From contig NC_081382.1 in assembly GCF_030684315.1 (NCBI RefSeq), positions 9,611,267-9,675,266 on the forward strand: a stretch of DNA of 64,000 nucleotides, written 5' to 3'. The translations under genes were made by a program, and so were the position numbers. Under the pieces are notes generated by a model. It worked only from the letters and a program-made list of their open reading frames with translations, did not search any database and had not been told where the DNA came from. Below, in pieces: positions 1,340 through 59,965 of the stretch. Numbering within the stretch: the first letter of the stretch is position 1; each line of letters begins with the position of its first letter. Source of the stretch: Stegostoma tigrinum (lineage: Eukaryota).

Positions 1340-1555
1340 GCGAGTTTTGAGAAGATTTGTAGCTCAGGTTGAGGTTCTGGATGTGAGTTTGTTCGCTGAG
1401 CTGGAAGGTTAGTTTTCAGACGTTTCGTCACCATTCTAGGTAACATCATCAGTGAGCCTCCGATGAAGCTCAGTCTATTTTACAGTGCTAGAAGCTAGAA
1501 TGGTGACGAAACGTCTGAAAACTAACCTTCCAGCTCAGCGAGCAAACTCACATCC
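1340..1555. mobile_element. Palindromic mini-insertion made of Penelope-like element termini
   Basis: Inverted arms 1379-1439 and 1495-1555 (60/61 match). Flanking direct repeat ATCCTTTCTAATTA at 1326-1339 and 1556-1569. Confidence 0.88.
1416..1455 (-). ncRNA. Minimal type I hammerhead ribozyme motif (PLE-associated)
   Basis: Minus strand reads UCA-CUGAUGA-U-GUUACC-UAGAAU-GGUGAC-GAA-ACGU-C-UGA: intact core, 6-bp stem II, palindromic ACGU stem III, 3-bp stem I. Confidence 0.8.
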
Positions 1556-1689
1556 ATCCTTTCTAATTATTAAACCAATTTGTTTCCCAATAGCCACATC
1601 ATAGTACAGAGCTCAAATCTTGCTGAGAGAAGAGATGCACTTAATCAGTCCATGCTTGCAAACAAGAAAAAAGACAAAATAATTTCTGT

Positions 1690-1860
1690 TAGATATGATT
1701 CTGTGATTGGGCAGCACTTCCTGAGTATGCAAATAACTTGGCTTCCTGAGTGTGCACTAATGTCCAATTTAGGAAAATCCTTAAAAATGGCTCATTTGTA
1801 CTTACTGGAAGCAAGACATTCTCATATGCGGAGACCTACTGTCTTAAAACGAAAGGATGT
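1690..1860 (+). mobile_element. Degraded PLE GIY-YIG C-terminal fragment
   Basis: Translation DSVIGQHFL...PECA...AHLYLLEARH...PTVLKRK resembles the PLE endonuclease C-terminus (SAIGQHL...LLEA..I...P.L..QK). Confidence 0.55.
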
Positions 1861-1865
1861 GACGT

Positions 1866-2030
1866 GTCACAAAAACAGAAATTGCTGGAAAAGCTCAGCA
1901 GGTCTGGCAGCATCTGCAGAGAGAAATCAGAGTTAACAATTCAGGCCCAATGACTCTTCATCAGTTCTGAACTTTTCCAGCAACTTCTGTTTTTGTTTCT
2001 GATTTCTCTCATCATAAGTTACTTCATTTT
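1866..2030. mobile_element. Palindromic PLE-terminus fragment (second family) with decayed hammerhead
   Basis: Arms 1869-1898 and 1967-1996 are reverse complements. The minus strand at 1932-1967 has CTGATGA-A-GAGTCATTGGGCCT-GAA. The same terminus recurs at about 8920-9020. Confidence 0.7.
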
Positions 2031-2513: not shown

Positions 2514-2778
2514 ACATTCATTCATGGGATGAGGGTGTTTATTGCCCATCTCTAATTGACCAGAAAGCAGTTAAGAGTCACCTGCATGACTGTGGGTCTG
2601 GAGTCATGTATAAGGGTGGCAGTTTCCTTCCCTAAAGGTCATTCGTGAACCAGATGGTTTTTTCTAACAATCATTATTAGGTTCATGGTCACCATTTGAG
2701 TCTTTATTCCAGATTTTTATTGAATTCAAATTCTACCATCAGCTATGGCAGGATTCAAACCCAGGTCTCCGGAACATG
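2514..2778 (-). mobile_element. tRNA-derived SINE with LINE-derived tail (head truncated)
   Basis: Matches the copies at 9695, 18567, 34855, 44206 and 55528 (GCAGTTTCCTTCCCTAAAGG, GAACCAGATGG, B-box-like GGATTCAAACCC). Confidence 0.8.
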
Positions 2779-2780
2779 AG

Positions 2781-3417
2781 AGATAACAAGATGTAGAGCT
2801 AGATGAACACAGCAGGCCAAGCAACATCAGAGGAGCAGGAAAGCTGATGTTTCATTTCTGGACTCTTCTTCAGAAATGGGGGAGGGGAAGGGGATTCTGA
2901 AATAGATAAAGGGAGGGGAGAGACAATGATGGAAGACGGATAAAGGAATAGATGTGTGGAGAGGAGACAGACAGGTCAAGGAGGTGGGGATGGAGCCAGT
3001 CAAGGGAGGGTGGACAGGTCAAGGAGGCGGGAACGAGCTGAGCTGATTTTGGGGTGAGGTTGGGGGTGGGGCCATTTTGAAGCTTGCAAAGTCCACATTG
3101 TGAAGTCCATGTGGATATCACAAGCTTCAAGATCTCCCCACCTCCGAACTCATCCCAAAACTAGCCCAACTCATCCCCGTCTCCCCAACCTGTCCATCTC
3201 CTCTCTGCCTATCTGCTCCCCTATCCATCTTCCATCTGCCTCCCCCTCTGTCTCTATTTATTTTGGAATCCCCTTGCCCTCCTCCATTTCTGAAGAAGGG
3301 TACAGACCTGAAACATCAGCCTTCCTGCTCCTCTGATGCTGCTTGGCCTGCTGTGTTCATCCAGCTCCACACCTTGTTATCTCAGATTCTCCAGCATCGG
3401 CAGTTCCTACTATCTCT
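2781..3417. mobile_element. Two PLE 3' ends joined head-to-head (about 630 bp imperfect palindrome)
   Basis: 2781-3100 is in minus orientation and 3108-3417 in plus orientation of the terminus seen at 41283. Decayed hammerhead CTGAAGA-A-GGGT-ACAG-ACCT-GAA-ACAT-C at 3290-3319. Confidence 0.85.
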
Positions 3418-3419
3418 GG

Positions 3420-6898: not shown

Positions 6899-6972
6899 AA
6901 AACCTAGTGGAAAACTCTTATTTAAAACCTGATATAGATAAGGTATTTAATTGGTCACCTTTATAACTCTAC

Positions 6973-7182
6973 AAAAATAATGCAGTGTGGAGCTGGAGGA
7001 ACACAGCAGACCAGGCAGCATCAGAGGAGCAGGAAAGCTGATGTTTCGGTTCAGGACTCTTCTTCAGAAATGAAGAGGGAGGGCCACGACTGGAAACGTC
7101 AGCTTTCCTGCTCCTCTGATGCTGCTTGGCCTGCAGCATTCCTCTGGCTCCACACTGTGTCATCTCTGACTCTTACAATCTC
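6973..7182. mobile_element. Palindromic PLE-terminus mini-insertion
   Basis: CAGTGTGGAGCTGGAGGAA...GGAAAGCTGATGTTTC is mirrored by GAAACGTCAGCTTTCC...GGCTCCACACTG. Direct repeat TAACTCTAC at 6964-6972 and 7183-7191. Confidence 0.85.
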
Positions 7183-8369: not shown

Positions 8370-9520
8370 TAGATTGGGGATTGTTAATGTACAATTTAGA
8401 CCTAAGTATCCTTATACCAGTTACATAAAGCAAGCATGCAGGTGCAACAAACCCTTTGGTAGTTCTGTCCACTAAAATGAACTTCCAGTTGCCAGCTACT
8501 TCAATACACCTCTGTGTTCCTGAGCTAAGATCTCTGTCTCAGCCTTCTGCAGCGCTCCAATGAAGCTCAGTACAATTCGGAAGAACAGCACTCATGTTCC
8601 TCTTGGGAACACTGCTGCCTTCTGGGCTCAATTTCAAGCTCAACAATTTTAGGCCTTGAGGCACCTTGTCCCATGTCCTTACCCCAACCCACATGCACCA
8701 GGCCTTGACATTACTCGGGCTGCCACCATAAACACCCATTGTCAGTGACTAATGATCCATAGTAACAGTTATTCTTTGCCCCAGGCTAACCTTTACCCAT
8801 TCCTTTGTCTGTCCAACTGTTTTTCTCTGCCTTTGGGCCCTATCTCCACCTATCAAGTACCCACACTGCCTCTCCGCCTCCTCATTTTCTGCATAAATAC
8901 CAACAATTTCCTAGCCACCATCAGGAAGAAGGTGTCACTGGACCCCAAACATTAATTCTATTTTCTCTCCCCAGCTGCTGCCAGAGCTGCTGAGTTTCTC
9001 CAAAAATTTCTGTTTTTGTTTGTAGGCAAATGGTATGTTGGCTTTCATTGCAAAAGAGTTTTGATTGTAAGTGCAAGAAAAGCTAGCTTGAGTCATAAAG
9101 GCCTTAACAAGGCCATTCTTACTGTGTAGTGTGCAGTTCAAGTCTCCTTGCCTAAGAAAGGATATGCTTGCAGCAAACAATCTGCTGTAATTTTTTTACC
9201 AGACTGATTCCTGGCTAGGCAACATTGTCATCTGAGTTGGCATTTAGCTCCCTAATAAAGGACTAGAGCAATGGGTCAGTCTCAAAACGTAAGGTAGGCC
9301 TATTTCGGATTTCTTCACTGAGGAAGACTACCAAAGAATCCTGTGAAGATCAATTCAGTGAATATATTTCAGAAAAAAATCAGGATTCGTGACACAAAAG
9401 ACAACAAAGTGTTATTGGGAAAAGGTATGGCATTGAGATAAAAGATCAGCCATGATCATATTGAATGGCGCAAAAGCTTTGAAGGGTGAATGGCTTACAC
9501 TTGCTCCTATTTTTGAAGTT
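8370..9520 (+). mobile_element. Old CR1 3' fragment interrupted by a PLE 3' fragment (about 8455-9020)
   Basis: CR1-like AAGCAAGCATGCAGGTGCAACAA resumes as GGCAAATGGTATGTTGGCTTTCATTGC after an insert encoding ELPVASYFN (GIY-YIG C-terminus) and a PLE terminus. Confidence 0.65.
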
Positions 9521-12670: not shown

Positions 12671-12699
12671 AAAATATGTTTAGCCATTCGCAACAGAGT

Positions 12700-13020: not shown

Positions 13021-14394
13021 ATTTTCGCATTGTTCAAGTCCTTTCAAAATATCAGCTGCTGGCTAACACCCCATCACCAAGAGTTGGTTTAATACCGAAC
13101 TACGGTATGCAGCCTCATATTCAGACTTGTATTGCATTATTGCCACATTTTTGTTCCGGTGTGCCAACTTGCAGTGTGACTTGGACCGAAGACAACATGC
13201 TTTTCTCACCGGATTTTCACAGCTGCTGGCAAGAAAGACAGATACTTCCCCGTAAGTGCTTCACAGCATTTTGTGACTGAGCAGCTTGCATCCGCAGTTG
13301 TGCCAAAGTAGGGGAGAATGCTGAACAACAAAATAAACACAAAAAGCAGCTGCCACTGCAATGGCAAGACCTGCCTCCCAGTCTCCTTGAAATTGTTCAG
13401 TGCTGACGTGCTCTAGATTGTGTCAACTAGCCTGCTGCAGGATCTTACTTGAGTGAAACTCATAGAAAGGTGGAAGCAAATGAACTGAACAGTTTCCACA
13501 ATTGAACAGGAGTCCACACCAGCCCGGCTTTGCCTTTCAATGCAAGAAACTTATAGTTATTCATGATGCGCCGAGATAATTCTCAGAGCTAAGAATTTGA
13601 AACTTCCCCTTGCTTATGTTAGATCTTCATTGAAGAATGAATTTTCTTCATCATACATTACAGAAATAAGAGAATCTGGGTTGGCTATGCACATTGTCAG
13701 AAAATAATCATCAACAGAACTGTACCTTTCAGTGAGACTTGATTCAAACAGATAGTGGAAAGATGGCAAAAATGATGCCTTTCTTTCAAGCCTCCCCCTG
13801 ACCAACCTCAACCGTATGCATTTCTAAGGCATGTTTTTTTTGTAAGTTGTGCCTCTTGAGAACAGACTACTGAATTTCTTTTGTGAATTTGGAAATAGAG
13901 GAAAAGTTAATGATTATTTTTCAATATCCTCATTATAGCTGCAATATTATTACACGGATCCGTAAAAGCACTATGCTGATAGGAGAGAAAAATTACATCA
14001 CGACATGGGACATACTGGTTTCATAAGCCTTCATCTTAATCTGAGTGGTTAATGAGTTAATTTGTAACAGTCAGTCCAGTCAGTCTGATCAGTCACCAGT
14101 TCATTCAGCTCACCAGCCTCCTGACTGTGTATATAGTGGGAAATTAATCTAAGTGACCATATTGCCCTGACTAAGTCTGAGATATCATCTCAATGCATAT
14201 AATTTGTGGGGTTAATGAACTTTAAGACACCTGTCTCAACAATGGAAATTAGACACTGCAGTTTCACAAAGAACGTACAGGTTTTATTTTGAAACTTGCT
14301 GGTTAAAAGTATAAATGTGCAATGTTCCTTTGTTCATTTCGCAAGGTCATGTGGCTTCTGATGAGAAGATGGATTTGATATGTTTGTGAGACAA

Positions 14395-14710
14395 TTAGAT
14401 TAGATTCCCTACAATGTGGAAACTGGCCCTTTGGCCCAACAAGTCCACACCGCCCTTTTCAACATCCCACCCAGACCAATCCCCCTATAACCCACACACC
14501 CCTGAACACTATGAGCAATTTAGCTTGGCCAATCCACCGGGCCTGCACATCTTTGGACTGTGGGAGGAAAGCAGAGCACCCGCAGGAAACCCACGCAGAC
14601 ACAGGGAGAATGTGCAAACTCCACAGAGACAGTCACCCGATGCTAGATTTGAACCCGGGTCCCTGGTACTGTGAAGCTACAGTGCTAACCACTGAGCCAC
14701 CGTGCCACCC
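14395..14710 (-). mobile_element. HE1-type V-SINE
   Basis: tRNA head (GGTGGCTCAGTGGTTAGCAC; GGTTCAAATC), V-domain GTCTGCGTGGGTTTCC...TCCCACAGTCCAAAGATGTGCAGG, and (TCTAA)n tail. Confidence 0.92.
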
Positions 14711-16347: not shown

Positions 16348-16686
16348 GGCATAGCAGCTTAGTGATTAGCGCTGCTGCCTCACAGCACCAGAGACCTGGG
16401 CTTGATTCCGCCTCAAGAAACTGTACCTGTGGAGTTTGCATATTCTCCCTGTGCCTGTGCAGCTTTCCTTGGGATGCTTTGATTTCCTCCCACAATCCAA
16501 AGATGCCCAGGTCATGTGGATTGGCCATGGGAAATTGCTCATATTGTCTAAGGATGTGCAGGATATGTGGATTAGTCTTGGGGGATGCAGTGTTACAATA
16601 AGTGGGTCTGGATAGTCTGTTCTTCAAAGTGTCAGTGTGCACTTGATGGGCTGAATAGCCTGCTTCCACAGTGTTGGGATCCTAGG
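16348..16686 (+). mobile_element. HE1-type V-SINE (diverged)
   Basis: TTAGTGATTAGCGCTGCTGCCTCACAGC head, V-core TTTCCTCCCACAATCCAAAGATG, and CR1-like tail. Confidence 0.85.
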
Positions 16687-19381: not shown

Positions 19382-22322
19382 TTGAACAATGAACAATACA
19401 GCACAGCACCAGGCCCTTTGGGCCCTCCAAGCCTGCAAGCTACATTCTGCTATAACAGTCTTCACTTACAGGATCCATACCCCTCTATCCTCACTAGTCC
19501 CTTCCTATTCATGTATTTGTCCGGATGTTTTTTAAATGCTGCTATCGTGTCTGCTTCCACCACCTCCCCTGGCAATGCGTTCCAGGCACTCACCACGCTT
19601 TGAGTGAAAAACCTGCTTCGCACACCTCTTTTAAACATCCCCCCTCCCCACACTTCAACCCATGTCCCCCTAGTAATTGACCCCTCCACCCTGGGAAAAA
19701 GCCTCACACTTTCTATTCTATTCATGTCATTCATAATCTTATAAACTTCTGTCAGGTCACTCGTCAACCTCCTCAGTTCAAGTGAAAACAAACCCAGTCT
19801 ATCCAACCTTTCTTCATAGCTAAAATCCCCAATACCAAGCAACATCCTGGTAAACCTTTTCTGTTCCCTCTCCAAAGCATCCACATCCTTCTGGTAGTGT
19901 GGTGATGAGCACTGTATGCCATATTCCAAGAGTGTCCTGGCTAAAGTTCTATATAGCTGCAGCACAACTTGCCTATCCTTATTTTCAATGCCCCTTCCAA
20001 TCAAAGTAAGTGTGCCATAGGCCTCCTGCACTAGCTTATCTGTCTACTCCTCCATTTTCAGTGACCTGTGGACCTGCACACCAGATCTCTCTGCATATCA
20101 GTACTCTTAATGAATCTGCCTTCAATGAATAATTTCCACCTGTACTTGGCCTTTTAAGATGCGTTACCTCACAGCAGGCCAAGCAGCATCTTAGGAGAAC
20201 AAAAACTGACATTTCGGGCATAGAAACATCAGCCTTTGTGCTCCTAAGATGCTGCTAGGCCTGCTGTGTTCATCCAGCTCTACACTTTGTTACCTCTGAC
20301 TCTCCAGCATCTGCAGCTCCCATTATCTCTGCATTACCTCACATTTGTCCGGATTAAACTCCATCTGCCATTTTCCTGCCCATGCCTCTAACTGATCTAT
20401 CCAGCTATATCCTCTGACAATCCTCCTCAGTGTCTGCAACTTCACCAATCTTTGTATCATTCACAAACATACCACATTTTCCTCCAAATCATTTATGTAG
20501 ACTGTGAGCAGCAGAGGTCCAGCGCTAATCCCTATGGTACACCACTGGTCACAACCTTCCATTCTGAAAAAAACATCCTTCCATTGCTACTCTCTGTCCC
20601 CTGTGACTAAGCCAGCTGACCCCTGATACCATGTAACATCACCCTTTATACCAGTCTGCCATGGGGTACCATGTCAAAGGCTTTATTGATGCCCATGTAG
20701 GGAACATCAACTGCTTTTCCATCATCAATCACCTTTGTCACCTCCACAAAAAAAACTCCATCAAGTGAGTGAGGCATGACCTCCCTTGCACAAAATCATG
20801 CTATTGCTAATGAGTCCATTTTTTCTAAATGCTTCCAGATGGTGCCCCTGAGAATGTTTTCCAATAATTTCCCGACCACTGATGTGAGGTTCACAGGCTT
20901 GTAATTTCCTGGATTATCCTTGCTGCCCTTCTTAAACAAGGGGACAACATTGGCTAGTCTCCTGTTCTCTGGGGCCTCATCTGTGGCCGAAGACGATATA
21001 AAGATACCTGTCCATGCTCCAGAAATTTATTCTCTTGCCCTTCTCAATATTTCAGGGTAGATCCCATTAGGACCCAGTGACTCATCTACCTTAGTACTTT
21101 TTAAGATTCACAACATTTCTTCCTTTTTAATAGCAATTTAGAAATTTGTCACTCCTTCCCTGAGATTATCCTCCACCAATTCCTTCTGTTTGGTGAATGT
21201 TGACATAAAGTATTCATTTAGGACCTCGCCCATCTCTTCTGGCTCCATGGATAGATTGCACCCTTTATCCTTGAGTGGGCCAAACCTTTCTGTGGCTATG
21301 TTCTTTTTTTATATATATATATAAAAAGCTTTGGGATTGTCCTTTATCTTGTTTGCTAACCATTTTTCATGGCCTCTTTTAGCCCTTCTAGTTCCTTGTT
21401 TTTTCCGACTTTCTTACTTCAATGACTTTGTCAATTCCATGCTCCTAGACCTAATTTATGTTTCCTTTTTCTTTTTGACCAAGGTCATAACATCCCAGTC
21501 TTCTAACGTTCACATAACTTGCCCATATCTATCCATCATTCTCACAGGAACATGGTGCTGCTGATCTTATATCAACTGCCATTTGAAATACTTCCACACA
21601 TTTGATGTGGATTTACCCTCGAACAGTTGCCTCCAATTAATATTCTATAGTTCTTGCTTGATATTGTTGTCATTCACCTTGCCCCAATTTAACACCTGCA
21701 CCTGAGGACCCCTATTACCCCTATCCATGTGTACCTTATATCTCATGGTATCATGATCACTACCCCTGAAATGCTCCCCATTGATACTTCAGCCAATTGA
21801 CTGGGTTCATCTACCAAAGTTATGTCCAGTATAACCAGTTCCCTGTTTGGACTGTCAAGAAACCCTTCTGAATGGTCCTTACAAATTCTGCCCCATTCAA
21901 GACCCTATCGTGTCGTGAGTCCCAGTCAATATAAGGGAAGTTAAAATCACCCACCGCAACAAGCCTGCTGCTTTTATTATATCTTCCCAAAATCTGCCTA
22001 CATATCCTCTCTTCTGTCTCCCATTGGCTGTTGGGAGGCCTATAGTATACTCCCAGCATTATACTTACCCCAAATTGCCTCAGTGCATGAGTCCTCTGAA
22101 TGATCCTCCCTCAGTTCAGCTGTGAGATAGTCCTTTATGTGTGATACAACTCCCCTACCCCTTTTCTAACCTTTCCTATCATACCTGTAACATCCAAATC
22201 CTGGGACAATCCTATCCCTCTTCCAACCAAGCCTCTGTATTTGTAATAATGTCATAGTTCTAAGTGCTAACCAAAGCTCTCCGTTCGTTTACCTTGTCTA
22301 TTACACTTCTCACATTGAGATG
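19382..22322 (-). mobile_element. CR1 LINE, nearly complete but decayed ORF2 (APE endonuclease to 3' tail)
   Basis: ORF 21820..22059 has GVYYRPPNS and VGDFNFPYIDW (endonuclease). ORF 19462..20031 is the CR1 C-terminus. Tail near 19382. Confidence 0.92.
20174..20329. mobile_element. Palindromic PLE-terminus mini-insertion nested in CR1
   Basis: GCAGGCCAAGCAGCATCTTAGGAG...CTCCTAAGATGCTGCTAGGCCTGC. Direct repeat TGC(G/A)TTACCTCACA at 20160-20173 and 20330-20343. Confidence 0.88.
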
Positions 22323-29629: not shown

Positions 29630-30005
29630 AAATCTGATTGTGAACCCAATCAATGATTGCTGTAAAGGACCTTCTGGTTCACCAATGTCCTTTGGGGAAG
29701 GAAACTGTCATCCTTACCTAGATAACAAAGTGTGGAACTGGATGAACACAGCAGGCCAAACAGCATTTTAGGAGCACAAAAGTGCTCCTAAGATGCTGCT
29801 TGGCCTGCTGTGTTCATCCAACTCCATACTTTGTTACCTCTGATTCTCCAGCATCTGCAGTTCCCATTATCTCTGTAAACCTTACCTAATCTGGCCTCCA
29901 GAATGACAGCAATGTGTTTGACTCTTAACTGCCCTTGGAGCTATTATGGGCAGGCAATAAATGTTGGCCTAGCCAACGATGTCCTCATCCCAATGAAGAA
30001 TAAAA
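29630..30005 (+). mobile_element. tRNA SINE body/tail interrupted by a PLE hairpin
   Basis: CTGGTTCACCAATGTCCTTTGGGGAAGGAAACTGTCATCCTTACCT|...|TCTGGCC...GGGCAGGCAATAAATGTTGGCCTAGCC. Confidence 0.8.
29721..29879. mobile_element. Palindromic PLE-terminus mini-insertion
   Basis: Hairpin centred on GGAGCAC-AAAA-GTGCTCC (29771-29788). Direct repeat CCTTACCTA at 29712-29720 and 29880-29888. Confidence 0.9.
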
Positions 30006-30853
30006 CAAAAATCATCTGTACATCATTTCTTGCTCCTGTTGTCCACGATTACTCACCAATGTCCACAGTGTACAGAATGCTGAAGCACTATTGTGACATT
30101 CGGAAGCCTACCTACTTCTGAAAAGTTGTATCCTATTCTGGGAGTATAAACTGTCAAAATAAACAATTATTCCTTCCAACATCTCTTTCAAAAATGTATT
30201 ATCCAATAAATGGCCATAAGGTATTTAACTAAACAAATAGTAATAAAGAAATTCTACATGAAAAATATATTAAGTAGTTATTAAAGTGTAGATAAGCAAA
30301 TTCATAGACCCCTTTAAGCTGTACAAATAACCCACGCTGAGCTATGGCCATTGTTGAGGTTAAGAACTCATTTAAACTTCATTATGCATTCCACTCAAAA
30401 CTGTTCGAAAACAAAGCCTCCAGAACTAAATATTGATTAGACCTTAAAACAGTGCAACAGGTCTCTGAAGTAATATTCAACTAAAACAGTTAACCACAGA
30501 AGGCAATTGGCACAATAAAGTTTGAATTTTACTATTCCTACAATGCAGGGAACTACTTTATCCATTGAAAAATGTAATCTGCTACATCTGAATGATTTTT
30601 TACATTGCTGGTCAACTGAATACTCACTTATCTTTGAAGAACAATGCCTTACCAACAACTACTACATTAAAATACATATTTAAAAGACCACACGGAATGG
30701 TACTGAATATATGAAGTTGGTCACAATCTTTGAAAGTACTTGTCAAAATGTTCTAGACTTCAGATATGATTGCTTCTTAGATCACAAATTCTCTGACCTG
30801 ATATAACCTACACCAACTGCAGAAGCTGGTACAACAGGTCGGTGAGAGTAAAC

Positions 30854-32055
30854 TGACCAAACAGGTAGATGAGAGTAAACCGGTTGATGTGGTGTCTATG
30901 GATTTCAGCAAGGCGTTCGATAAGGTTCCCCACAATAGGCTATTGTACAAAATGCGGAGGAATGGAATTGTGGGAGACATAGCAGTTTGGATCGGAAATT
31001 GGTTTGCTGAAAGAAGACAGAGGGTGGTGGTTGATGGGAAATGTTCATCCTGGAGACCAGTTACTAGTGGCGTACCGCAAGGGTCGGTGTTGGGTCCACT
31101 GCTGTTTGTCATTTTCATAAATGACCTGGATGAGGGCGTAGAAGGATGGGTTAGTAAATTTGCAGACGACACCAAGGTCGGTGGAGTTGTGGATAGTGAC
31201 GAAGGATGTTGTAGGTTACAGGGAGACATAGATAAGCTGCAGAGCTGGTCTGAGAGGTGGCAAATGGAGTTTAATGTGGACAAGTGTGAAGTGATGCACT
31301 TCTGTAGGTGTAACTGGAATGCAAAGTACTGGGCTAACGGTAAGATTCTTGGTAGTGTAGATGAGCAGAGAGATCTTGGTGTCCATGTACACAGATCCTT
31401 GAAAGTTGCCACCCACGTTGACAGGGCTGTTAAGAAGGCATACAGTGCTTTAGCTTTTATTAATAGAGGGATCAAGTTCCAGAACCAAGAGGTTATGGTG
31501 AAGCTGTACAAAACTCTGGTGCGGCCGCACTTGGAGTATTGTGTACAGTTCTGGTCACTGCATTATAAGAAGGATGCGGAAGCTTTGGAAAGGGTGCAGA
31601 GGAGATTTACGAGGATGTTGCCTGGTATGGAGGGAAGGTCTTACGAGGAAAGGCTGAGGGACTTGAGGCTGTTTTCATTAGAGAGAAGAAGGTTGAGAGG
31701 TGACTTAATTGAGACATATAAAATAATCAGAGGGTTAGATAGGGTGGATAGGGAGAGCCTTTTTCCTGGGGTGGTGACGGCGAACACGAGGGGGCATAGC
31801 TTTAAATTGAGGGGTGAAAGATATAGGACAGATGTCAGAGATAGTTTCTTTACTCAGAGAGTAATAAGGGTATGGAGCGCTTTGCCTGCAACGGTAGTAG
31901 ATTCGCCAACTTTAGGTACATTTAAGTCGTCATTGGATAAGCATGTGGATGTACATGGAATAGTGTAGGTTAGATGGGCTTGAGATTGGTATGACAGGTT
32001 GGCACAACATCGAGGGCCGAAGGGCCTGTACTGTGCTGTAATGTTCTATGTTCTA
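30854..32055 (+). mobile_element. Young CR1 LINE, 5'-truncated within RT
   Basis: Uninterrupted 359-aa ORF 30889..31968 with DFSKAFDKVPH, SGVPQGSVLGPLLF and SKFADDTK, followed by 3' UTR and GTTCTAT tail. Confidence 0.97.
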
Positions 32056-35845: not shown

Positions 35846-38235
35846 CATAGAACATAGAACATTACAGCACAGTACAGGCCCTTCAGCCCTCGATGTTGTG
35901 CCGACCTGTCATACCAATCTCAAGCCCATCTAACCTACACTATTCCATGTTCGTCCATATGCTTATCCAATGACGACTTAAATGTACCTAAAGTTGGCGA
36001 ATCTACTACCGTTGCAGGCAAAGCGTTCCATACCCTTACTACTCTCTGAGTAAAGAAACTACCTCTGACATCTGTCCTATATCTTTCACCCCTCAATTTA
36101 AAGCTATGCCCCCTCGTGCTCGCCGTCACCATCCTAGGAAAAAGGCTCTCCCTATCCACCCTATCTAACCCTCTGATTATTTTATATGTATCAATTAAGT
36201 CGCCTCTCAACCTTCTTCTCTCTAATGAAAACAGCCTCAAGTCCCTCAGCCTTTCCTCATAAGACCTTCCCTCCATACCAGGCAACATCCTAGTAAATCT
36301 CCTCTGCACCCTTTCCAAAGCTTCCACATCCTGCTTACAATGCAGTGACCAGAACTGTATGCAATACTCCAAGTGCGGCCGCACCAGAGTTTTGTACAGC
36401 TTCAACATAACCTCTTGGTTCTGGAACTTGATCCCTCTATTAATAAAAGCTAAAACACTGTATGCCTTCTTAATAGCCCTGTCAACGTGGGTGGCAACTT
36501 TCAAGGATCTGTGTACATGGACACCAAGATCTCTCTGCTCATCTACACTACCAAGAATCTTACCATTAGCCCTGTACTTTGCCTTCTGGTTACTCCTACC
36601 AAAGTGCATCACCTCACACTTGTCTGCATTAAACTCCATTTGCCACCTCTCAGCCCAGCTCTGCAGCTTATCTATGTCTCTCTGCAACCTACAGCATCCT
36701 TCGTCACTATCCACAACTCCACCGACCTTAGTGTCGTCTGCAAATTTACTAACCCATCCTTCTACGCACTCATCCAGGTCATTTATAAAAATGACAAACA
36801 GCAGTGGACCCAACACTGACCCTTGTGGCACACCACTAGTAACTGGTCCCCAGGATGAACATTTCCCATCAACTACCACCCTCTGTCTTCTTTCAGCAAG
36901 CCAATTTTCGATCCAAACTGCCATATCTCCCACAATTCCATTCCTCCGCATTTTGTACAATAGCCTATTGTGGGGAACCTTATTGAACGCCTTGCTGAAA
37001 TCCACATCAACCGGTTTACTCTCATATACCTGTTTGGTCACCTTCTCAAAGAACTCAATAAGGTTTGTGAGGCACGACCTTCCCTTTACAAAACCGTGTT
37101 GACTATCCCTAATCAATTTATTCTTTTCTAGATGATTATAAATCCTATCCCTTATAACCTTTTCCAACACTTTACCAACAACTGAGGTAAGGCTCACTGG
37201 TCTATTATTACCAGGGTTGTCTCTACTCCCCTTCTTGAACAGGGGAACCACGTTTGCTATCCTCCAGTCATCTGGCACTATTCCTGTAGACAATGACGAG
37301 TTAAGTGGCAAAGGCTCGGCAATCTCCTCCCTGATTTCCCAGAGGATCGGAGGATAAATCCCATCCGGCCCAGAGGACTTATCTATCTTCACCCTCTGAA
37401 GGATTTCTAATACCTCTTCCTTGTGAGCCTCAATCCCACCTAGTCTAGTAGCCTGTATCTCAGTATTCACCTCGACAACATTGTCATTTTCTAGAGTGAA
37501 TACTGTTGAAAAATATTCATTTAGTGCTTCCCCTATCTCATCTGACTCCACACACAACTTACTACTACTATCCTTGATTGGGCCTAATCTTACTTTTGTC
37601 ATTCTTTTATTCCTTAAATACCTATAGAACGCCTTAGGGTTTACCCTGATCCTGTCCACCAACAACTTCTCATGTCTCCTCCTGGGTCTTCTGAGTTCTC
37701 TCTTTAGGTCTTTCCTGGCTACCTCGTAGCCCTCAAGTGCCCTAACTGAGCCTTCATATCTCATCCTAACATAAGCCTTCTTCTTTCTCTTGACTAGAGC
37801 TTCCACCTCCTTCATAAACCACGGCTCCCGCACTCTACAACTTCCTCGCTGCCCGACAGGTACATCCTTATCTCGGACATACAGGAGCTTTTCCTTGATT
37901 AAGCTCCACATTTCTAATGTGCCCATCCACTGCAGTTTCCTTCCCCATCCTATGCTCCCTAAATCTTGCCTAATCTCATCGTAATTGCCTTTCCCCCAGC
38001 TATAACTCTTGCCCAGTGGTATACATCTATCCCTTTCCATCACTAAAGTAAACATAACAGAACTGTGATCGCTATCACCAAAGTGCTCACCTACTTCCAA
38101 ATCTAACACCTGGCCAGGTTCATTGCCCAGTACCAAATCTAATGTGGCTTTGCCCCTTGTTGGCCTGTCTACATACTGTGTCAGGAAGCCCTACTCCACC
38201 CACTGGACAAAAACTGACCCATCTATAGTACTCGA
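35846..38235 (-). mobile_element. Young CR1 LINE, 5'-truncated in the endonuclease domain; 733-aa ORF2 remnant
   Basis: ORF 35935..38136 has HFGDSDH, KSSGPDGI, WRIANVVPLFKKG, QHGFVKGRSCLTNL, GVPQGSVLGP and FADD. CATAGAACATAGAAC tail at 35846. Confidence 0.97.
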
Positions 38236-38491
38236 ACAAAGGATGTTCCACGCTAAAGACATGCCCTGCCATTCAAATTGGCTGCTGCTCTGTATCCTCA
38301 ACAGTGCCAGAAGACAATAGTGATGATTGCTGGGCCTACAACTAGTCCTCAGAAATAAAGGCATCTCCCTGATTTCAAGTAAGGGTCATGTATGTTTTGG
38401 AGAATCAAGGGGAAGGTGTTAGATTTGAGAACTCAACACGGGGGAGTGGGGGTGGGGTTCAGGGGAACAACTTAGATATTCACCTTGATGA

Positions 38492-38675
38492 GTCATGATG
38501 TGGAGGTCCTGGTGTTGGTCTGGGGTAGACAAAGTCAGAAGTCACATGACACCAGGTTATAGTCCAACAAGTTTCTTTGAAATTACAAGCTTTAGGAGTG
38601 ACTTCACCTGACGAAGGAGCAGCGCTTAGACAGCTTGCGATTTTAAACAAACCTGTTGGATTATAACTTAGTGAT
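38492..38675. mobile_element. Palindromic PLE-terminus fragment (third family) with decayed hammerhead
   Basis: GTTATAGTCCAACAAGTTT...ACAAGCT is mirrored by AGCTTGCG...AAACCTGTTGGATTATAAC. Motif CAC-CTGACGA-A-GGAGC-AGC-GCTTA-GAC-AGCT-T-GCG at 38605-38639. Confidence 0.7.
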
Positions 38676-38676
38676 C

Positions 38677-39100
38677 AGAGATAACGGGAACTGCAGATGC
38701 CGGAGGATCTGAGATGACAAAGTGTGGAGCTGGATGAACACAGCAGGCCTAGCAGCATCTCAGGAGCATAAAAGCTGACGTTTCGGGCCTAGACCCTTCA
38801 TCAGAGAGGGGGATGGGGAGAGGGAACTGGAATAAATAGGGAGAGAGGGGGAGGCGGACCGAAGATGGATAGAGGAGAAGATAGGTGGAGAGGTGAGTAT
38901 GGGTGGGGAGGTAGGGAGGGGATAGGTCAGTCCAGGGAGGACGGACAGGTCAAGGGGGCGGGATGAGGTTGGTAGGTAGGAAGTGGAGGTGCGGCTTGAG
39001 GCGGGAGGAGGGGATAGGTGAGAGGAAGAAGAGACGACAAGAGAGTTGCAGTGGGAGAGAGATCCCCTAAGATTGGTCCGGAGGGAGGAGGGGACAAGAC
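38677..39100 (-). mobile_element. PLE 3' end (same family as 41283)
   Basis: Near-identical to 41283-41560, including the terminus and the purine-rich tract. Confidence 0.9.
38775..38806 (-). ncRNA. Minimal hammerhead ribozyme motif
   Basis: CU-CUGAUGA-A-GGGU-CUAG-GCCC-GAA-ACGU-C-AG. Stem I is only 2 bp. Confidence 0.65.
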
Positions 39101-41282: not shown

Positions 41283-43038
41283 AGATAATAAAATGTGAGG
41301 CTGGATGAACACAGCAGGCCAAGCAGCATCTCAGGAGCACAAAAGCTGACGTTTCGGGCCTAGACCCTTCATCAGAGAGGGGGATGGGGAGAGGGAACTG
41401 GAATAAATAGGGAGAGAGGGGGAGGCGGACCGAAGATGGAGAGTAAAGAAGATAGGTGGAGAGAGTATAGGTGGGGAGGTAGGGAGGGGATAGGTCAGTC
41501 CAGGGAAGACGGACAGGTCAAGGAGGTGGGATGAGGTTAGTAGGTAGATGGGGGTGCAGCTTAGGGTGGGAGGAAGGGATGGGTGAGAGGAAGAACAGGT
41601 TAGGGAGGCAGAGACAGGTTGGACTGGTTTTGGGATGCAGTGGGTGGAGGGGAAGAGATGGGCTGGTTGTGTGGTGCAGTGGTGGGGGGGAGAGGATGAA
41701 CTGGGCTGATTTAGGGATGCAGTTGGGGAAGGGGAGATATTGAAACTGGTGAAGTCCACATTGATACCATATGGCTGCAGGGTTCCCAGGCGGAATATGA
41801 GTTGCTGTTCCTGCAACCTTCGGGTGGCATCATTGTGGCAGTGCAGGAGGCCCATGATGGACATGTCATCTAAAGAATGGGAGGGGGAGTGGAAATGGTT
41901 TGCGACTGGGAGGTGCAGTTGTTTGTTGCGAACTGAGCGGAGGTGTTCTGCAAAGAGGTCTCCAAGCTTCCGCTTGGTTTCCCCAATGTAGAGGAAGCCA
42001 CACCAGGTACAGTGGATGCAGTATACCACATTGGCAGATGTACAGGTGAACGTCTGCTTAATGTGGAATGTCATCTTGGGGCCTGGGATAGGGGTGAGGG
42101 AGGAGGTGTGGGGGCAAGTGTAGCATTTCCTGCGGTTGCAGGGGAAGGTGCCGGGTGTGGTGGGGTTGGAGGACAGTGTGGAGCGAACAAGGGAGTCACG
42201 GAGAGAGTGGTCTCTCCGGAAAGCAGACAGGGGTGGGGATGGAAAAATGTCTTGGGTGGTGGGGTCAGATTGTAAATGGCGTTAGTGTCGGAGGATGATG
42301 TGTTGTATCCGGAGGTTGGTAGGGTGGTGTGTGAGAACGAGGGGGATCCTCTTAGGGCGGTTGTGGCGCGGGCGGTGTGTGAGGGATGTGTTGCGGGAAA
42401 TACGGGAGACGCGGTCAAGGGCGTTCTCGATCACTGTGGGGGAAAGTTGCGGTCCTTGAAGAACTTGGACATCTGGGATGTGCGGGAGTGGAATGTCTTA
42501 TCGTGGGAGCAGATGCGGTGGAGGCGGAGGAATTGGGAATAGGGGATGGAATTTTTGCAGGAGGGTGGGTGGGAGGAGGTGTATTCTAGGTAGCTGTGGG
42601 AGTCGGTGGGCCTGAAATGGACATCAGTTACAAGCTGGTTGCCTGAGATGGAGACTGAGAGGTCCAGGAAGGTGAGGGATGTGCTGGAGATGGCCCAGGT
42701 GAACTGAAGGTTGGGGTGGAAGGTGTTGGTGAAGTGGATGAACTGTTCGAGCTCCTCTGGGGAGCAAGAGGCGGCGCCGATACAGTCATCAATGTACCGG
42801 AGGAAGAGGTGGGGTTTGGGGCCTGTGTAGGTGCGGAAGAGGGACTGTTCCACGTAACCTACAAAGAGGCAGGCATAGCTGGGGCCCATGCGGGTGCCCA
42901 TGGCCACCCACTTAGTCTGTAGGAAGTGGGAGGAGTCAAAAGAGAAGTTGTTGAGTGTGAGGACGAGTTCAGCTAGGCGGATGAGAGTGTCGGTGGAGGG
43001 GGACTGGTCGGGCCTGCGGGACAGGAAGAAGCGGAGGG
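41283..43038 (-). mobile_element. Penelope-like retroelement, 5'-truncated (RT C-terminal half plus GIY-YIG endonuclease), young but disrupted
   Basis: RT: MAMGTRMGPSYACLF, RYIDD, FLD, RPTDSHSYL. GIY-YIG: NVVYCIHCTWCGFLYIGETKR..FAEH..PVANHF..EQQLIFRLGT..GIN. TSD CCTACTCTTTTGCT at 41269-41282 and 43039-43052. Confidence 0.96.
41346..41377 (-). ncRNA. Minimal hammerhead ribozyme motif in the PLE terminus
   Basis: CU-CUGAUGA-A-GGGU-CUAG-GCCC-GAA-ACGU-C-AG on the PLE sense strand. Confidence 0.65.
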
Positions 43039-44205
43039 CCTACTCTTTTGCTGTTCCTTTTCTCAAACTGTTCAGCGACATGCTTCACTTCAACATTCCT
43101 CCATGGTGTTACTTTTCATTTTGATTGCCTCTAAAGCTGTATTTATTTTTCTATTGCCCCTTCCTCTTTCTGTTACCGTCCCCTCCTCTTAAATTAACCC
43201 TTTCTACTGCACTGTTCATCATGCTGCTTAAGGCTTCTGCAATGCTAGATAATCAATCTTAAAGACAGCTTTAAAGACGCTCAATATAATTCAAGGACCA
43301 TTTAACATCTGAAATGAACATCGTCTCCTCATGCAACATCCTTCTAAGGAAGTAACGCATAATTACAGTGTGTAAAACAAAGGCAATGTATTAATCGTGG
43401 TGGACTTCATATAGGCTGCTCAAAACAAATCACTGAAGACAGTCAGGAGGATGAATTTGCAGAACCAGAAATGGTAAAATTACTTTAGATCTTGATCTGT
43501 GAAATGAGGCAGGTTTAACCACTATCCTCATCGCATATACTCTTGGGAAAATGTTGTCACAGTAAAATTGAACTCCATATTAAATTTAAAACACAAGACT
43601 AAGAAAATTAAATGTCCAGGTTGGCTTTGTTGGTGAAATGAATACATTGTGGTGATGCAGAATTGGGGGGTTTATTCAATGCTGGGGAAAAGGAGCAGAA
43701 AACTGGTTGAGGAGGCATCAGGAATTGTGATGGAGCGAAGCTCAAGATATAAAGGAGGGAGTTGGCAGTAAATGAGAGGGCATGGGAAATGATGGAACTG
43801 GGGATGTTATCAATCATCACCACCACTTTGACCTACATGGGGTGGGGTGGGGGAGTCAGTGGGGGTACAATGAAGCATAATGGTAGATTTTACCAAACTA
43901 CAGTGCCAGGGCATATGGGCAAGGAGAAATGTTGGGGTATTCTTTAATGTGGTGGGTGATGACATATTGAGGTTTAAGGGAGATAGACTGTCCAGAGGCA
44001 GGAAATGGAACAGGACGTAGAGGCTCTGGGGAGGTACATGCTGACCAGGCCAAGCCCCATTCTGAGGCTGTTCCATGTCATGACTTTCCAATTGCTTGAA
44101 GTGACCTGCAACTGGAAAAATACCCAAGGTGGACAAAATCAGTTTCAGCTTGATGGGCAAAAGCACAGGCTTCACTTCTGCTTGATAGAACTGCATTGAA
44201 GTTTG

Positions 44206-48279: not shown

Positions 48280-48572
48280 CATAGAATCCCTACAGTGTGG
48301 GGACAGGCCCTTTGGTCCAACAAGTCCACACAAAGCCTCAAAGCATCCCAGCCCACTACAACCCATCGAATCTACATAGCCCTGAACACTACAGGCAATT
48401 TAGCATGGCCAATCCACTTAGCCTGCACATCCTTGGACTGTGGGAGGAAACCCACACAGACACAGGGAGAATGTGCAAACTCCACACAGACTGTTGCTGA
48501 AAAGGGCAGAATCGAACCTGGGTCCCTGGGGCTGTGAGGCAGCGATGCTAACCATTGAGCCACTGTGCCGCC
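48280..48572 (-). mobile_element. HE1-type V-SINE
   Basis: GGCACAGTGGCTCAATGGTTAGC head, GGTTCGATTC B-box and V-core. Confidence 0.9.
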
Positions 48573-48689
48573 CTATATGCCTTATGGGGAAGGTTTATTC
48601 TTATCCAAATTACTTATGCCCTTAATGATTCTGTACACCTCAGTCAGACCCCCTCACCCTTCTCTGCTCCAAAGAAAACAATCCTACCA

Positions 48690-48830
48690 TCGTCTCCAAT
48701 GAAGGGTCTGGGCCCGAAACGTCAGCTTTTGTGCTCCTGAGATGCTGCTTGGCCTGCTGTGTTCATTCAGCTCCACACTTTGTTATCTTGAATTCTCCAG
48801 AATCTGCTGTTCCTATTATCTCTGATCTCG
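48690..48830 (+). mobile_element. Short PLE terminus insertion (hammerhead core mutated)
   Basis: CCAATGAAGGGTCTGGGCCCGAAACGTCAGCTTTTGTGCTCC... Imperfect flanking repeat AATCC(T/G)ACCA. Confidence 0.8.
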
Positions 48831-52159: not shown

Positions 52160-52256
52160 AGGCCACAAGGTGTGGAGCTGGATGAACACAACAGACCAAG
52201 TGGCATCAGAGGAGCAGGAAGGCTGACATTTCGGGCCTAGACTCTTCTTCAGAAAC
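52160..52256 (-). mobile_element. Short PLE terminus fragment with decayed hammerhead
   Basis: Minus strand: CTGAAGA-A-GAGT-CTAG-GCCC-GAA-ATGT-C-AG, followed by the common terminus. Confidence 0.8.
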
Positions 52257-55974: not shown

Positions 55975-56209
55975 TTTACGTTTTGAGCAAAATGTCTGTC
56001 AGGCTGTGGGTGAGGTTGTTGATTTGCTCACCAAGCTGGCTTGTTCTCATTCAAGCGTTCATCATCAAGATAGGTAACATCATCAGTGAGGCCTCCGATG
56101 AAGTAATGTTGTTCTACTCCACCTGGAGGCTTCGCTGGTGGTGTTACCTAGCACAGTGATGAAATGTTTGAACAAAAACAAGCCAGCATGGCAAGCAAGT
56201 CAACAACCT
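55975..56209. mobile_element. Palindromic PLE-terminus mini-insertion (relative of the 1340 family, older)
   Basis: GAGGTTGTTGATTTGCT..GCTGGCTTGTT...TAGGTAACATCATCAGTGAGGCCTCC is mirrored by GGAGGCTTCGCTGGTGGTGTTACCTA...AACAAGCCAGC..GCAAGTCAACAACCTC. TSD CAGTGAATTTAGTGC at 55960-55974 and 56210-56224. Confidence 0.88.
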
Positions 56210-57759
56210 CAGTGAATTTAGTGCACTTGCAATGCATAGGGAAGATGTAGAAAACATTGATTAGGTCTGTAGACAGACTAGCTCCTTAGATTTCAACTTG
56301 TACTACCAGTTTGACTTAAATGTCAGACAACTCCCTTTCTCAGTTTGAATGATGCTTGGGATGTATTCAATTTAAAAATGCCAGCTCTTGTTTTCAATCC
56401 TTCATTTTCATGGGCCTTTAAATTTTTACTTGCTCAAATCAGGCTCAGGCTAAGAGCAATGATTATTCAAAAAATATTGGAGAGTGGGGTGTTCTAAGTG
56501 ACGATTTGGGCTCTGGGTTTTTCATCATCAAAATTCTTCCAGGCGTTTGTCGATGCTATTTGACACTCCAATCCCTTCTTTCCCCTCATCACACCAATAG
56601 CCATCCATCCAACCCTTAGCTGCTGTAAAACTATCATTACACTAATTGGCAGAATTCAAACCCCAGGTTTCTGACTACAACCTTAACAACTTCATATATT
56701 ACTCCGACCTGCCAGATAGATAATCTCCCTGAGCGACTTCTTCTCTTCCACTGTCAACAGTCACTCTTTTGACCCTTCCTTTTCCTCTCCCTCTCGTTAT
56801 TCTCTCTACCAGGACAGAAAATTCACTTTTTGAACTGGAAATTTGTCGGTTTATTTTTCCTGAAAATGAGGTCTGTTGGAGAAGTTATTCCCTTGTATCA
56901 TTTAACTTCAGTGAATCAGCTTACCTGATAGCCATTGCACTGGGAAAAAAGTAAGGAAACAGACATTATTTCTTTTCTGTGATATTCAAGGATAGACTTG
57001 CTCAGTGATGAGTATGTTCCAATTCCTAGACCCTTGAATTATTTATAAATTTAAAAATTTCATAAATATATATTCAGTAACAACTGGGCATCCATTATCA
57101 AAGCTAGAGAGTAAACTGTAATGGGAATGAATGGAGTGGGGCCCTTTCCTTCATCCATGGTATTATCAAATTGTAATGATTTAAAATGGGAATAATTAAT
57201 AATTTCCACGTGCTCTGTTTATTCAATTCCTTCCCTTAGACTGTAGCTAGCAGGGTTAAAAATCCCACTGATCTCATTCTTGTTGCTCTCCACGTTCAAT
57301 CTGTCAATTTCCACCTAAGCTTGTTTTTAATGCTCACTAATTCTCACATGACCTTTTTCTGCTTCACGGTCTCCATAGCTTTACGACTCTCTGGGGTGAC
57401 GTTGCTCTTATCGCGCAGGCTAGGCTTTAATTGGGAGTTAAATCTTCTTCCCGTTTTCTTTAGTGGCCCATTTCCCTTTACAACTAGGTAGGCCAGCTGG
57501 TGCAAACAAAGGCATCTCCCCAGGGTATTGCATCTCCGAATCAACTCGCTGTACAAGCTGTGATAAAATACGCACACTCCCACCTTGTATATGCTGGTTA
57601 ACAAGCCTGTCCCGATCAACCCAATAACAGTTAACTAGCACACAGGGGGAAGCAAGGGAGCAGTGTCTTAAAGATGCTGTGGGCTGCAAAGCATCAGGAA
57701 TTGGGCAGGCAGTTGAAAGTAGGAGGAATACTAGGTAAACAGCCAGCAATGTCTGACAC

Positions 57760-59075
57760 GGAGGTGCTAGTGTTGGGCTGAGGTGGTCAAAGTCCGAAGT
57801 CAAAAGGCACCAGATTATAATCCAGCAGGTTCATTTGAAACACAAGCTTTCGAAGCATAGCCCCTTCGTTTAGGTGCAGTGAGAGAGAAGAGCACACAGG
57901 CCCAGAATTTATAGACAGGGAGATCAAGGGCAGATAGATCAAAAGATCGCACAATTGGTGTGAGTGGAATGTCAGGTTGTAAGTCTCGGCAGGTGACCAG
58001 GAATTTTCAATAGTTAGGAAAGTGTCAGCAGCTGAGTAATCAGTAAAGAGATACCCTATAATCCAATTAAATGAGGCAAAGGGATAATTACAACAATAAA
58101 TTAAAATAAGGTGTTACTGGAGGCAAACTAAATGACTGGAATAACATGATAAGTATAAAAGCCACATGCCGAGGGTCTAACCAAGGTAATGAGTAATTCA
58201 AAACTGTACAAACTAATTAAGGTAGAGAAATCATTAACATTTTTATCAAGGTGATTGTGTCAAAACAGAAGATTTTACAGATACAGAACAGAATGGTGGC
58301 ATCACATGTAGCTCAACATGAATCCAAAATCATGTTTGAAGCCATCTGTATGGGTGCAGAACTTGGCTATCAGCTTCTGCTCAGTGATTCTGCATGGTTG
58401 TGTATCTCAAAGTCAACCTTCGAGGATGCTTCCATGAAGATCAGAGGCTTAATGTCTTTGACAGCTGAAGTGTTCCCCAACTGGGAGGGAACATTCCCAT
58501 CTGGTGATAGCTGCCAATTTCCAGACACCATCCTACAACTCATCTGCTTCATCCTCAACCACAGCATCTTCACCTTTGAAAACCAGTTCTTCATCCAGAC
58601 ATGCAGAACGGCCATGGGGTCCAAACATGCTCCACAATATGCCAATGTTTACATGCACAAGTTCCAGTAAGACTTCTTTGTTGCACAGGACCTCCGGCCA
58701 ATGTTATACACCAGATACATTGAAGACATTTTCTTCCTTTGGACCCATGGTGAGGAGACAACTACATAGCAATATCAATAAGTTGCATCCCACTGTCAGA
58801 CTTATCATAGACTACTCTTTAGGAACAGTCTCATTCTTGGACACATGCATCTCCATGAAGGATGGACACTTCAGTTCCTCACTCTACTCCAAACCCATGG
58901 ATAACTTCATGATGCTGCATTTCTCTAGTTTCCAAGCTAAACTTATGCAAGAAGCCACCCCTTATGGACAAGACCTGTGCATACATAGGATCTGCTCAGA
59001 AGAGGAGGAACGCAACAGACACTCGGAGCAAGTCAACAACCTCAACCACAACACAAACTACAAATCTTTGCTAAA
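57760..59075. mobile_element. PLE with internal inversion: GIY-YIG C-terminus and terminus on minus (57760-58510), RT on plus (58510-59020)
   Basis: Minus: SLPVGEHFS...TEQKLIAKFCTHTDGFKHD. Plus: FILNHSIFTFENQFFIQ..TAMGSKHAPQYAN, RYIED, VSFLDT. Hammerhead-like CAC-CTAAACGA-A-GGGGC-TAT-GCTTC-GAA-AGCT-T-GTG at 57841-57876 (minus). Confidence 0.85.
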
Positions 59076-59299
59076 ATTTTAAACCTTAGACATTTTTCCA
59101 ATATCTAAAATATTGGACAAAACCTTGGACTTTTCAAAATTTTTATGAGGTAATTGAAAGCTGGGATGAGTCTATAGGAAATACACAGCCATGAGGCCTG
59201 GAAATGCAGATTGCTATCTGGGACTATTGTTCAGCCAGAAATCCCAGTTTACATCGCCCCTCCACAAGATCAAATCAAACCAACAGGCTCCAGCCCAAG

Positions 59300-59965
59300 T
59301 CAATACAGCATGGAGCTGGAAGATCACAGCATGGCAGGCAACATCAGAGGAGCAGGAAAGTCGATATTTCAGGTTTACACCCTTCATCAGGACGGGGAGG
59401 GAGAAGCCAGCTCAGAAATAAATGGAGGAAGGTGCCTGAGGCTGGGGGATTGTTGGTGGGATGGTGATAGGTGGATGCAGGTAGGGGTTTGAGGAAATTG
59501 GTCATGGGAAGTGTGAGGCAGATAAGGGAGAAAGAAAATGGACAGGTTGTGTCAGGTCAAAGAGGCAAGAATGAGAAGGAGGGTTGGACTGGGGATGGGG
59601 TGAATTTGAAACTGATGAATTCTATGTTCAGGCTGTAGGCTCCTGAGGCAGAGTATGAGGTGTTGTTCCTCCAGTTTATGAACAGGTTGGAGGACGTGTG
59701 GGAGTTGGAAAGATTGTTTGGAACCTTGGACAGAGGTGAGAGGGAAGGTATGGGGGCAGGTGTAGCACGTCCTGCAGTTGTAGAGAAAGGTCCCCAGTGT
59801 AGTGAGGTTGGTGGGCAGTACAAAGCGGATGAGGGAGTCGCGGAGACAGCGATCCCTATGGAAAGCAGTTACGGGTGGGAAGAAAAATATATCTTTGGCC
59901 GTGGGGTTGGATTGTAGGTCGTGGAAGTGGTGGGGGCGGGATGATGTGTTGGATTCAGAGGTCAA
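59300..59965 (-). mobile_element. Degraded PLE 3' portion (41283-like family)
   Basis: ORF 59552..59965 contains AFHRDRCLRDSL, CRTCYTCP and KLEEQHLILCLRSLQP. Confidence 0.85.
59360..59393 (-). ncRNA. Minimal hammerhead ribozyme motif
   Basis: GUC-CUGAUGA-A-GGGU-GUAA-ACCU-GAA-AUAU-C-GAC: 3-bp stem I, 4-bp stem II, palindromic AUAU. Confidence 0.7.

Follow-up and report, generated by a model that had tools for sequence, protein, structure and literature searches.

Putative minimal hammerhead ribozymes in the pseudo-long terminal repeats of three Penelope-like lineages of a carpet shark

A 64,000-nucleotide stretch of the genome of the carpet shark Stegostoma tigrinum (NCBI RefSeq assembly GCF_030684315.1, contig NC_081382.1, positions 9,611,267 to 9,675,266 of the forward strand; hereafter the window) very probably carries minimal type I hammerhead ribozymes in the pseudo-long terminal repeats (pLTRs) of three lineages of Penelope-like elements (PLEs), denoted A, B/C and D. 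Most of the copies are short and decaying, and self-cleavage is likely to be confined to transcripts of intact, tandemly arranged parent elements. This reading draws on the recurrence of an exact catalytic core with pairing stems, on the location of the motifs downstream of PLE coding remnants, and on the conservation of the core relative to its surroundings.

Hammerhead motifs and their host elements

Both strands of the window were scanned with an exact descriptor (CUGANGA, 8-25 nt, GAAANNUH). Six motifs listed in a preliminary description of this DNA are all present at their coordinates and with the stems ascribed to them. Five of them (1416-1455, 38775-38806, 41346-41377, 57841-57876 and 59360-59393) lie on the minus strand and only 38605-38639 on the plus strand, the strands not having been given before. 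The exact core, CUGANGA...GAAA...UH in type I order, is present at four of the six and at eight sites window-wide, both strands included (1419, 2846, 3290, 7040, 38777, 41348, 52225 and 59363). The two sites with an AGCU palindrome, already described as decayed, fail the descriptor: the core at 57841 has A in place of G5 as well as an additional base, and that at 38605 reads GAC instead of GAAA at the A14 position. Stem II is closed, after one extra base past position 9, by a G10.1-C11.1 pair in A, B and the lineage D motif at 57841. The closing pair is G-U in subfamily C and at 3290, consistent with CpG decay, and is G-C or G-U in all nine B/C rows with letters at this point. There is no loop 3; the 15.1-16.1 stretch is palindromic and reads ACGU, AGCU or AUAU among the six sites.

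Chance expectation was assessed by 200 dinucleotide shuffles in 2-kb blocks. The eight exact cores compare with a shuffle mean of 1.03 (maximum 4). When a stem I of at least two and a stem II of at least three base pairs were required as well, five matches were observed against a mean of 0.02 (maximum 2), and with the palindrome added four remained against 0.005 (maximum 1). An Rfam scan of the window at E<=10 gave 24 matches, none of them to a hammerhead family and only hairpin-like ones, below the gathering score; minimal motifs of this kind evidently fall outside the Rfam models.

The attribution of the motifs to pLTRs of shark PLEs was borne out by their linkage to reverse transcriptase (RT) and GIY-YIG endonuclease sequences on the coding strand, together with inverted arms, a tail and target-site duplications. 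For the RT frame at 42431-43039, identity reaches 97% with a predicted Stegostoma protein (77% of the query covered) and 89% with a Rhincodon protein. These matches point to a carpet shark as host, although a transposon cannot fix the species. The shark proteins that match the frame carry RVT_1 and/or GIY-YIG domains, the latter with E 8.6e-5 in P0002 (above the cut-off) and E 0.0019 in P0005 (below it). Each of the motifs at 41348 (B), 59363 (C) and 57841 (D) has a same-strand endonuclease remnant on its 5′ side. In the element at 41283..43039, whose frame is broken by stops and a frameshift, the RT and the endonuclease are joined by a C-X4-C-X2-C linker; upstream of the C hammerhead, an endonuclease remnant at 59702-59929 has C-X2-C-X2-C. 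Both linkers fit the CX2-5CxxC type found between RT and endonuclease in the Neptune/Nematis arrangement (PMC8557442); the window does not contain the linker of lineage D. The 3′ ends of B/C copies lie at +65 or +101 from N17, which defines an optional tail of 36 nt, and such a PLE tail has been described (PMC8557442, PMC11167929). Target-site duplications of 9-15 bp flank five of the 14 elements tested, and the short copies are either head-to-head pairs or solos. Among 23 pLTR arms, no element in the window has two ribozymes on the same strand; accordingly, no window copy could by itself form a dimer in cis.

These 23 arms were found by profile searches within the window and comprise 16 of B/C type, four of A and three of D, including copies missed previously; 22 of them were training rows, as the profiles were built from in-window alignments. 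BLASTN comparison of the motif neighbourhoods yielded three groups with no matches between them: A (1419 and the 56058 pair), B/C, and D (57841 and the 38605 pair). The six sites thus fall into three lineages, fewer than the four or more otherwise dissimilar families proposed at first. An unrelated family at 59360 was ruled out by 76% identity over 97 bp to 38725-38821 in B (29/40 identical bases downstream) and by 57% identity between its endonuclease remnant and that of the 41283 element; we therefore treat this copy as a subfamily, C, of the B lineage.

The preliminary description had proposed a comparison of core and flanking conservation as a check on itself, and the core proved to be the better conserved. 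In 14 of 15 aligned B/C rows (without the distant 1884 copy), 2/106 core positions differ as against 121/948 non-CpG tail positions (Fisher p=1.9e-4), a contrast in which decay and differences between subfamilies are mixed. Between lineages, 10-11 of 11 fixed core positions match, compared with 6-16 of 40 in the 40-nt flanks. Stem I, as had been claimed, differs between the groups yet still pairs. Relative to B, stem I of subfamily C contains two compensatory, double-sided pair changes that keep the pairing, but the overall B/C score does not rise above its shuffle control.

Proposed cleavage and the 5′ ends of copies

By analogy with published work, the two pLTRs of a single tandem transcript would join via a 4-bp palindromic stem III and an exchange of stem I strands, and the paired motifs would cut after N17, probably with help from the element's protein. 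Cleavage as dimers, which had been taken as established, holds for such motifs weakly and in vitro: minimal hammerheads showed low activity as dimers and none as monomers (PMC4209133). In the PLE hammerhead of Anolis, cleavage needed the element's protein and displayed C3/G8 rescue, and insertion in vitro did not require cleavage (PMC11167929).

Several results weigh against the overall reading, in addition to the mixed nature of the core-versus-tail contrast. Minimum-energy folding gave a complete active fold for none of the six motifs, whether as monomer or as homodimer, and the palindrome strand of A, B and C is predicted to fold back onto the 5′ core strand. The predicted dimer of the D motif at 57841 alone formed an intermolecular stem III and an exchanged stem I, with mispaired core bases. 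Published dimers from Xenopus were active in one of nine cases (bioRxiv 10.64898/2026.07.22.740005), and for the Anolis element no RNA sequencing reads were found to end at the cleavage site (PMC11167929). The B/C covariation score is 0.124 versus 0.125 in the shuffle control; two-sided changes occur in three pairs versus 1.4 in the shuffles, a value reached by 16 of 500, and stem I is only 2-3 bp long. At the protein level, the open reading frames of the window gave just a sub-threshold RVT_1 match (E 0.005) and no GIY-YIG match, and lineage A is without an RT in the window.

The 5′ ends of 14 B/C arms (2846, 3290, 7040, 7093, 20170, 20223, 29720, 29783, 38777, 41348, 48696, 52225, 59363 and 62188) were placed relative to N17. 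Nine lie at -41, -30, -30, -16, -7, -7, +2, +3 and +9; the other five lie beyond -130, and none falls at +10 to +55. Under a uniform null from -250 to +55 and excluding the two longest copies, this clustering (9/12) has p=1.3e-5, a value to be read with a range set post hoc, non-independent paired arms, non-uniform truncation and a loss of very short copies. In the distant 1884 subfamily, one arm begins near +37. In four sequencing runs, loose contig ends with low-agreement, AT-rich flanks pile up at 59390-59393, the motif's 5′ edge, rather than at N17, among the 24 rows listed out of 4291; divergence upstream of copy C contributes to this pile. Most short copies seem to keep an uncut motif, and three of the 14 seem to begin where a cleaved template would.

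We consider it unlikely that the motif has been kept for a role other than cleavage, for example as a protein-binding fold or as a stop or template-switch signal for reverse transcription in the pLTR. Such a role would suit the spread of short-copy 5′ ends over the whole motif (-41 to +9) instead of the cut site alone, as well as the position of the loose contig ends. It would also suit the unaffected insertion in vitro of catalytic mutants of the Anolis PLE (PMC11167929) and the proliferation of Naiad PLEs without canonical hammerheads (PMC8557442). On the other hand, a purely structural role does not need all of the catalytic core positions, which are kept across the three lineages and in distant animals, and the Anolis motif does cleave when helped by protein, with the rescue mentioned above.

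If the hammerheads are active, the 5′ ends may represent an in vivo footprint of the ribozyme, with reverse transcription that begins in the tail stopping at cleaved ends (+2, +3, +9) or stalling within the motif (-41 to -7), while stem I exchange, and not the palindrome, would prevent cross-pairing between lineages. We advance this combined proposal tentatively and do not expect it to hold in full. Were it true, thousands of genomic copies would provide a readout of hammerhead function in vivo.

Palindrome, stem I and partner choice

According to the preliminary description, each family's palindrome could restrict dimerization to compatible partners. The comparison of copies speaks against this: ACGU is common to A and B, and AUAU is found in a single copy and can be explained by CpG decay. 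Eleven B/C copies retain the palindrome site, of which four have ACGU, four ACAU, two AUGU and one AUAU, so that 8/22 palindrome cells are changed; row 62188 was left out of this count because it is aligned there by accident, via its target duplication. Arms of one and the same insertion differ, with ACAU at 7040 and ACGU at 7093, and AUGU at 20170 and ACAU at 20223. ACAU and AUGU were accordingly rejected as family palindromes and are attributed to CpG decay after insertion. Double CpG decay to AUAU is expected in ∼0.1 of copies, with a chance of ∼0.7 of at least one in 12, and judged from the sequences the AUAU at 59360 is probably such a doubly decayed ACGU. All three palindromes, ACGU, AGCU and AUAU, are already contained in Fig. 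S3 of PMC4209133, where AUAU is listed for families of Latimeria, Nematostella and C. remanei.

In the dimer geometry that we infer (cf. the legend of Fig. 1A in PMC4209133), an active site would be composed of two copies, one supplying the 5′ half and its partner supplying U16.1, N17 and the 3′ strand of stem I, which would make stem I intermolecular too. A pairing matrix between A and B gave all four stem III pairs (4/4) and no stem I pairs, and ACGU with AGCU gave two stem III pairs. Self-pairs in A, B, C and the D motif at 57841 amount to 2-4 in stem I plus 4 in stem III. Because of this matrix and of the intermolecular stem I, a compatibility rule would rest at least equally on stem I. 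In such a model the palindrome makes a poor family code, and stem I, which is also exchanged, would discriminate better. Partner choice, if there is any, would thus involve stems I and III jointly: ACGU versus AGCU would set D apart from the other two lineages, and A, B and C would be told apart by stem I.

The opposing picture of four or more families, each with its own palindrome as a dimer-compatibility code, appears to us distinctly improbable. It can point to ACGU and AGCU, which cannot pair in the middle of the stretch (duplex +5.9 versus -1.7 and -2.5 kcal/mol for the homodimers), to the published families with AUAU, and to the real compensatory stem I changes of subfamily C, which would allow a genuine AUAU. 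These points are offset by the palindrome shared between A and B and by its decay after insertion in B/C, together with the expected rate of double hits given above. Moreover, dimerization would as a rule be expected in cis, between copies on a single tandem transcript, where a code would hardly be needed.

Known systems and other features of the window

The shark motifs are new host members of an already described kind, the minimal hammerheads of PLE pLTRs (Cervera and De la Peña 2014, PMC4209133). They share with it the CUGANGA stretch, the extra base before stem II, the G10.1-C11.1 pair, the absence of loop 3 and the palindromic 15.1-16.1 stretch, as well as the occurrence as solos and opposite-strand pairs and of several families per genome. 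A difference lies in the host, since no cartilaginous fish occurs among the 56 motifs read from Fig. S3. The 2-bp stem I of shark B has counterparts in Drosophila and Culex in the same source. The Neptune hammerhead of Acropora digitifera (Fig. S3, PMC4209133) is close to B in its CU, a stem II starting with GGG, a 4-nt loop, ACGU, C17 and AGC, but it has a third stem I pair that is absent from shark B, and the flanks differ. PLEs have been recorded in the whale shark genome (PMC8455134). Our literature search, of partial coverage and made without Repbase or Dfam, found no report that dealt with PLE hammerheads of sharks or with a clustering of 5′ ends at the ribozyme; supplements to the preprint on retrozymes (bioRxiv 10.64898/2026.07.22.740005) may list these families. 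The present data extend the PLE hammerhead feature to sharks, with three lineages in one 64-kb window, which in itself was to be expected. Given how very high the copy number is in sharks, a statistical analysis could decide whether the cleavage site is marked by a peak of 5′ ends and whether subfamilies show covariation in stem I.

Non-long terminal repeat retrozymes likewise bear a type I hammerhead in short PLE-related repeats (PMC7229834; bioRxiv 10.64898/2026.07.22.740005), and the short copies could be conceived as non-autonomous units akin to retrozymes, spreading in the form of circular RNA. This we hold to be very improbable. In its favour, the summed contig depth over the ribozyme and tail at 59292-59403 is very high in four runs from two organisms, and retrozymes have been reported in one chondrichthyan genome (bioRxiv 10.64898/2026.07.22.740005). 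Retrozymes, however, are head-to-tail tandem units (PMC7229834; bioRxiv 10.64898/2026.07.22.740005), whereas the 23 arms of the 64-kb window include no adjacent same-strand units, and the variable 5′ ends, inverted arms and tails of the copies are typical of truncated PLE insertions. Finally, a chance origin of the matches in repeat-rich DNA can practically be dismissed: the shuffles do lead one to expect about one exact core per window, and stems I and III are very short, but the excess once stems are required is large and every strong match sits in register inside a homologous pLTR.

Lineage A is close to a fluke hammerhead, that of Cercyon from Clonorchis (Fig. S3, PMC4209133), with which it agrees at 33/40 nt when compared by eye. 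An open frame of 38 codons (1339-1452, minus) begins inside the lineage A ribozyme. In the Poseidon element PAc of Anolis the start of the open reading frame likewise overlaps the ribozyme, with the tail in the first codons (PMC11167929). A protein search with the lineage A frame returned five matches, namely three Opisthorchis proteins, one whale-shark model and one unnamed protein (best E 3.9e-10); the predicted Opisthorchis proteins are up to 58% identical over 36 aa. A word-indexed protein search with the same frame gave no matches among three candidates. The fluke protein could not be tied to a PLE family, with all atlas scores <0.9 and no alignment with a Neptune-type protein.

Outside the window, pattern scans found no matches in viral contigs (scanned twice) or in prokaryote genomes. 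A B-like motif with unrelated flanks was present at five metagenome loci representing three distinct sequences. In these contigs (L001-L005, 401-434) the B-type motif is near-identical and occurs in short inverted arrangements with the same CpG-type changes.

Table 1. Hammerhead motifs and PLE copies of the window (strand "." for paired arms).
Feature	Coordinates	Strand	Remarks
Lineage A hammerhead	1416..1455	-	intact core; stem I UCA/UGA; stem II 6 bp; ACGU; reading frame opens inside
Complete short lineage A insertion	1340..1555	.	head-to-head pLTR arms; plus arm begins near 1497, within loop II
Older lineage A head-to-head pair	55975..56209	.	15-bp target-site duplication
Lineage B hammerhead	38775..38806	-	intact core; 2-bp stem I CU/AG; ACGU
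Lineage B hammerhead	41346..41377	-	identical to 38775; in 3′ pLTR of the window's longest PLE copy
5′-truncated Neptune-type PLE	41283..43039	-	RT 42431-43039; GIY-YIG in frame 41331-42281; 3′ pLTR
Subfamily C hammerhead	59360..59393	-	intact core; stem I GUC/GAC; stem III AUAU
B head-to-head pair	2769..3418	.	hammerheads 2846-2873 minus, 3290-3317 plus; exact cores; both ACAU
B head-to-head pair	6971..7182	.	7040-7067 minus, ACAU; plus arm from G12 (7093), ACGU; 9-bp target-site duplication
B head-to-head pair	20170..20333	.	both arms begin inside hammerhead (AUGU, ACAU); 10-bp target-site duplication
B head-to-head pair	29721..29879	.	arms begin 3 and 9 nt past predicted cleavage site; 9-bp target-site duplication
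Solo B pLTR	48693..48815	+	begins 3 nt before core; two core changes; ACGU
Solo B pLTR	52165..52255	-	begins 3 nt before core; exact core; AUGU
Solo B pLTR	62091..62189	-	begins 2 nt past predicted cleavage site; 11-bp target-site duplication by eye
Distant decayed B-type subfamily pair	1870..1996	.	second copy at 8888-9018 (plus)
Lineage D hammerhead	57841..57876	-	decayed core; stem I CAC/GUG; AGCU
Lineage D hammerhead	38605..38639	+	one core change; stem I broken; AGCU; plus arm of head-to-head pair ∼38482-38670

The lineage A insertion at 1340..1555 has a tail of ∼40 nt on its minus arm only and is flanked by a 14-bp target-site duplication (1326-1339/1556-1569). The older pair at 55975..56209 contains two decayed hammerheads, at ∼56051-56089 (minus) and ∼56132-56171 (plus). 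The B copy with the 38775 hammerhead is 5′-truncated and spans ∼38671-39033; its tail end interrupts the plus arm of the lineage D pair, so that the region 38482-39033 consists of one PLE inserted into the pLTR arm of another. The motifs at 38777 and 41348 were considered as a natural tandem pair and rejected, being separate insertions 2.6 kb apart of which the first is truncated at 39033. Upstream of the lineage D motif at 57841 there is an endonuclease C-terminal remnant (minus, ∼58280-58517), and next comes an inverted PLE RT segment (plus, ∼58470-59060). After this segment, a short tail fragment of the 56011-type lineage A subfamily is found at 59020-59075 (plus), where loose contig ends continue into an ACGU motif.

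At the 5′ junction of the solo B copy at 62080-62205, four additional bases show complementarity to the target, which suggests a template switch. Adjoining the 62188 pLTR, at 62212-62391 (plus), is a decayed PLE RT fragment with 37% identity to the shark protein P0002. Two copies of a long interspersed nuclear element, presumably CR1-like, lie in opposite orientation at 35935-38190 (minus) and 30802-31968 (plus) and are 95% identical over 1.2 kb; the former has an open frame of 751 aa with a strong RVT_1 match. A second dispersed repeat of ∼300 bp, which we take to be probably a shark short interspersed nuclear element, is present at 14394-14704, 16357-16588, 48282-48573 and 60504-60814.

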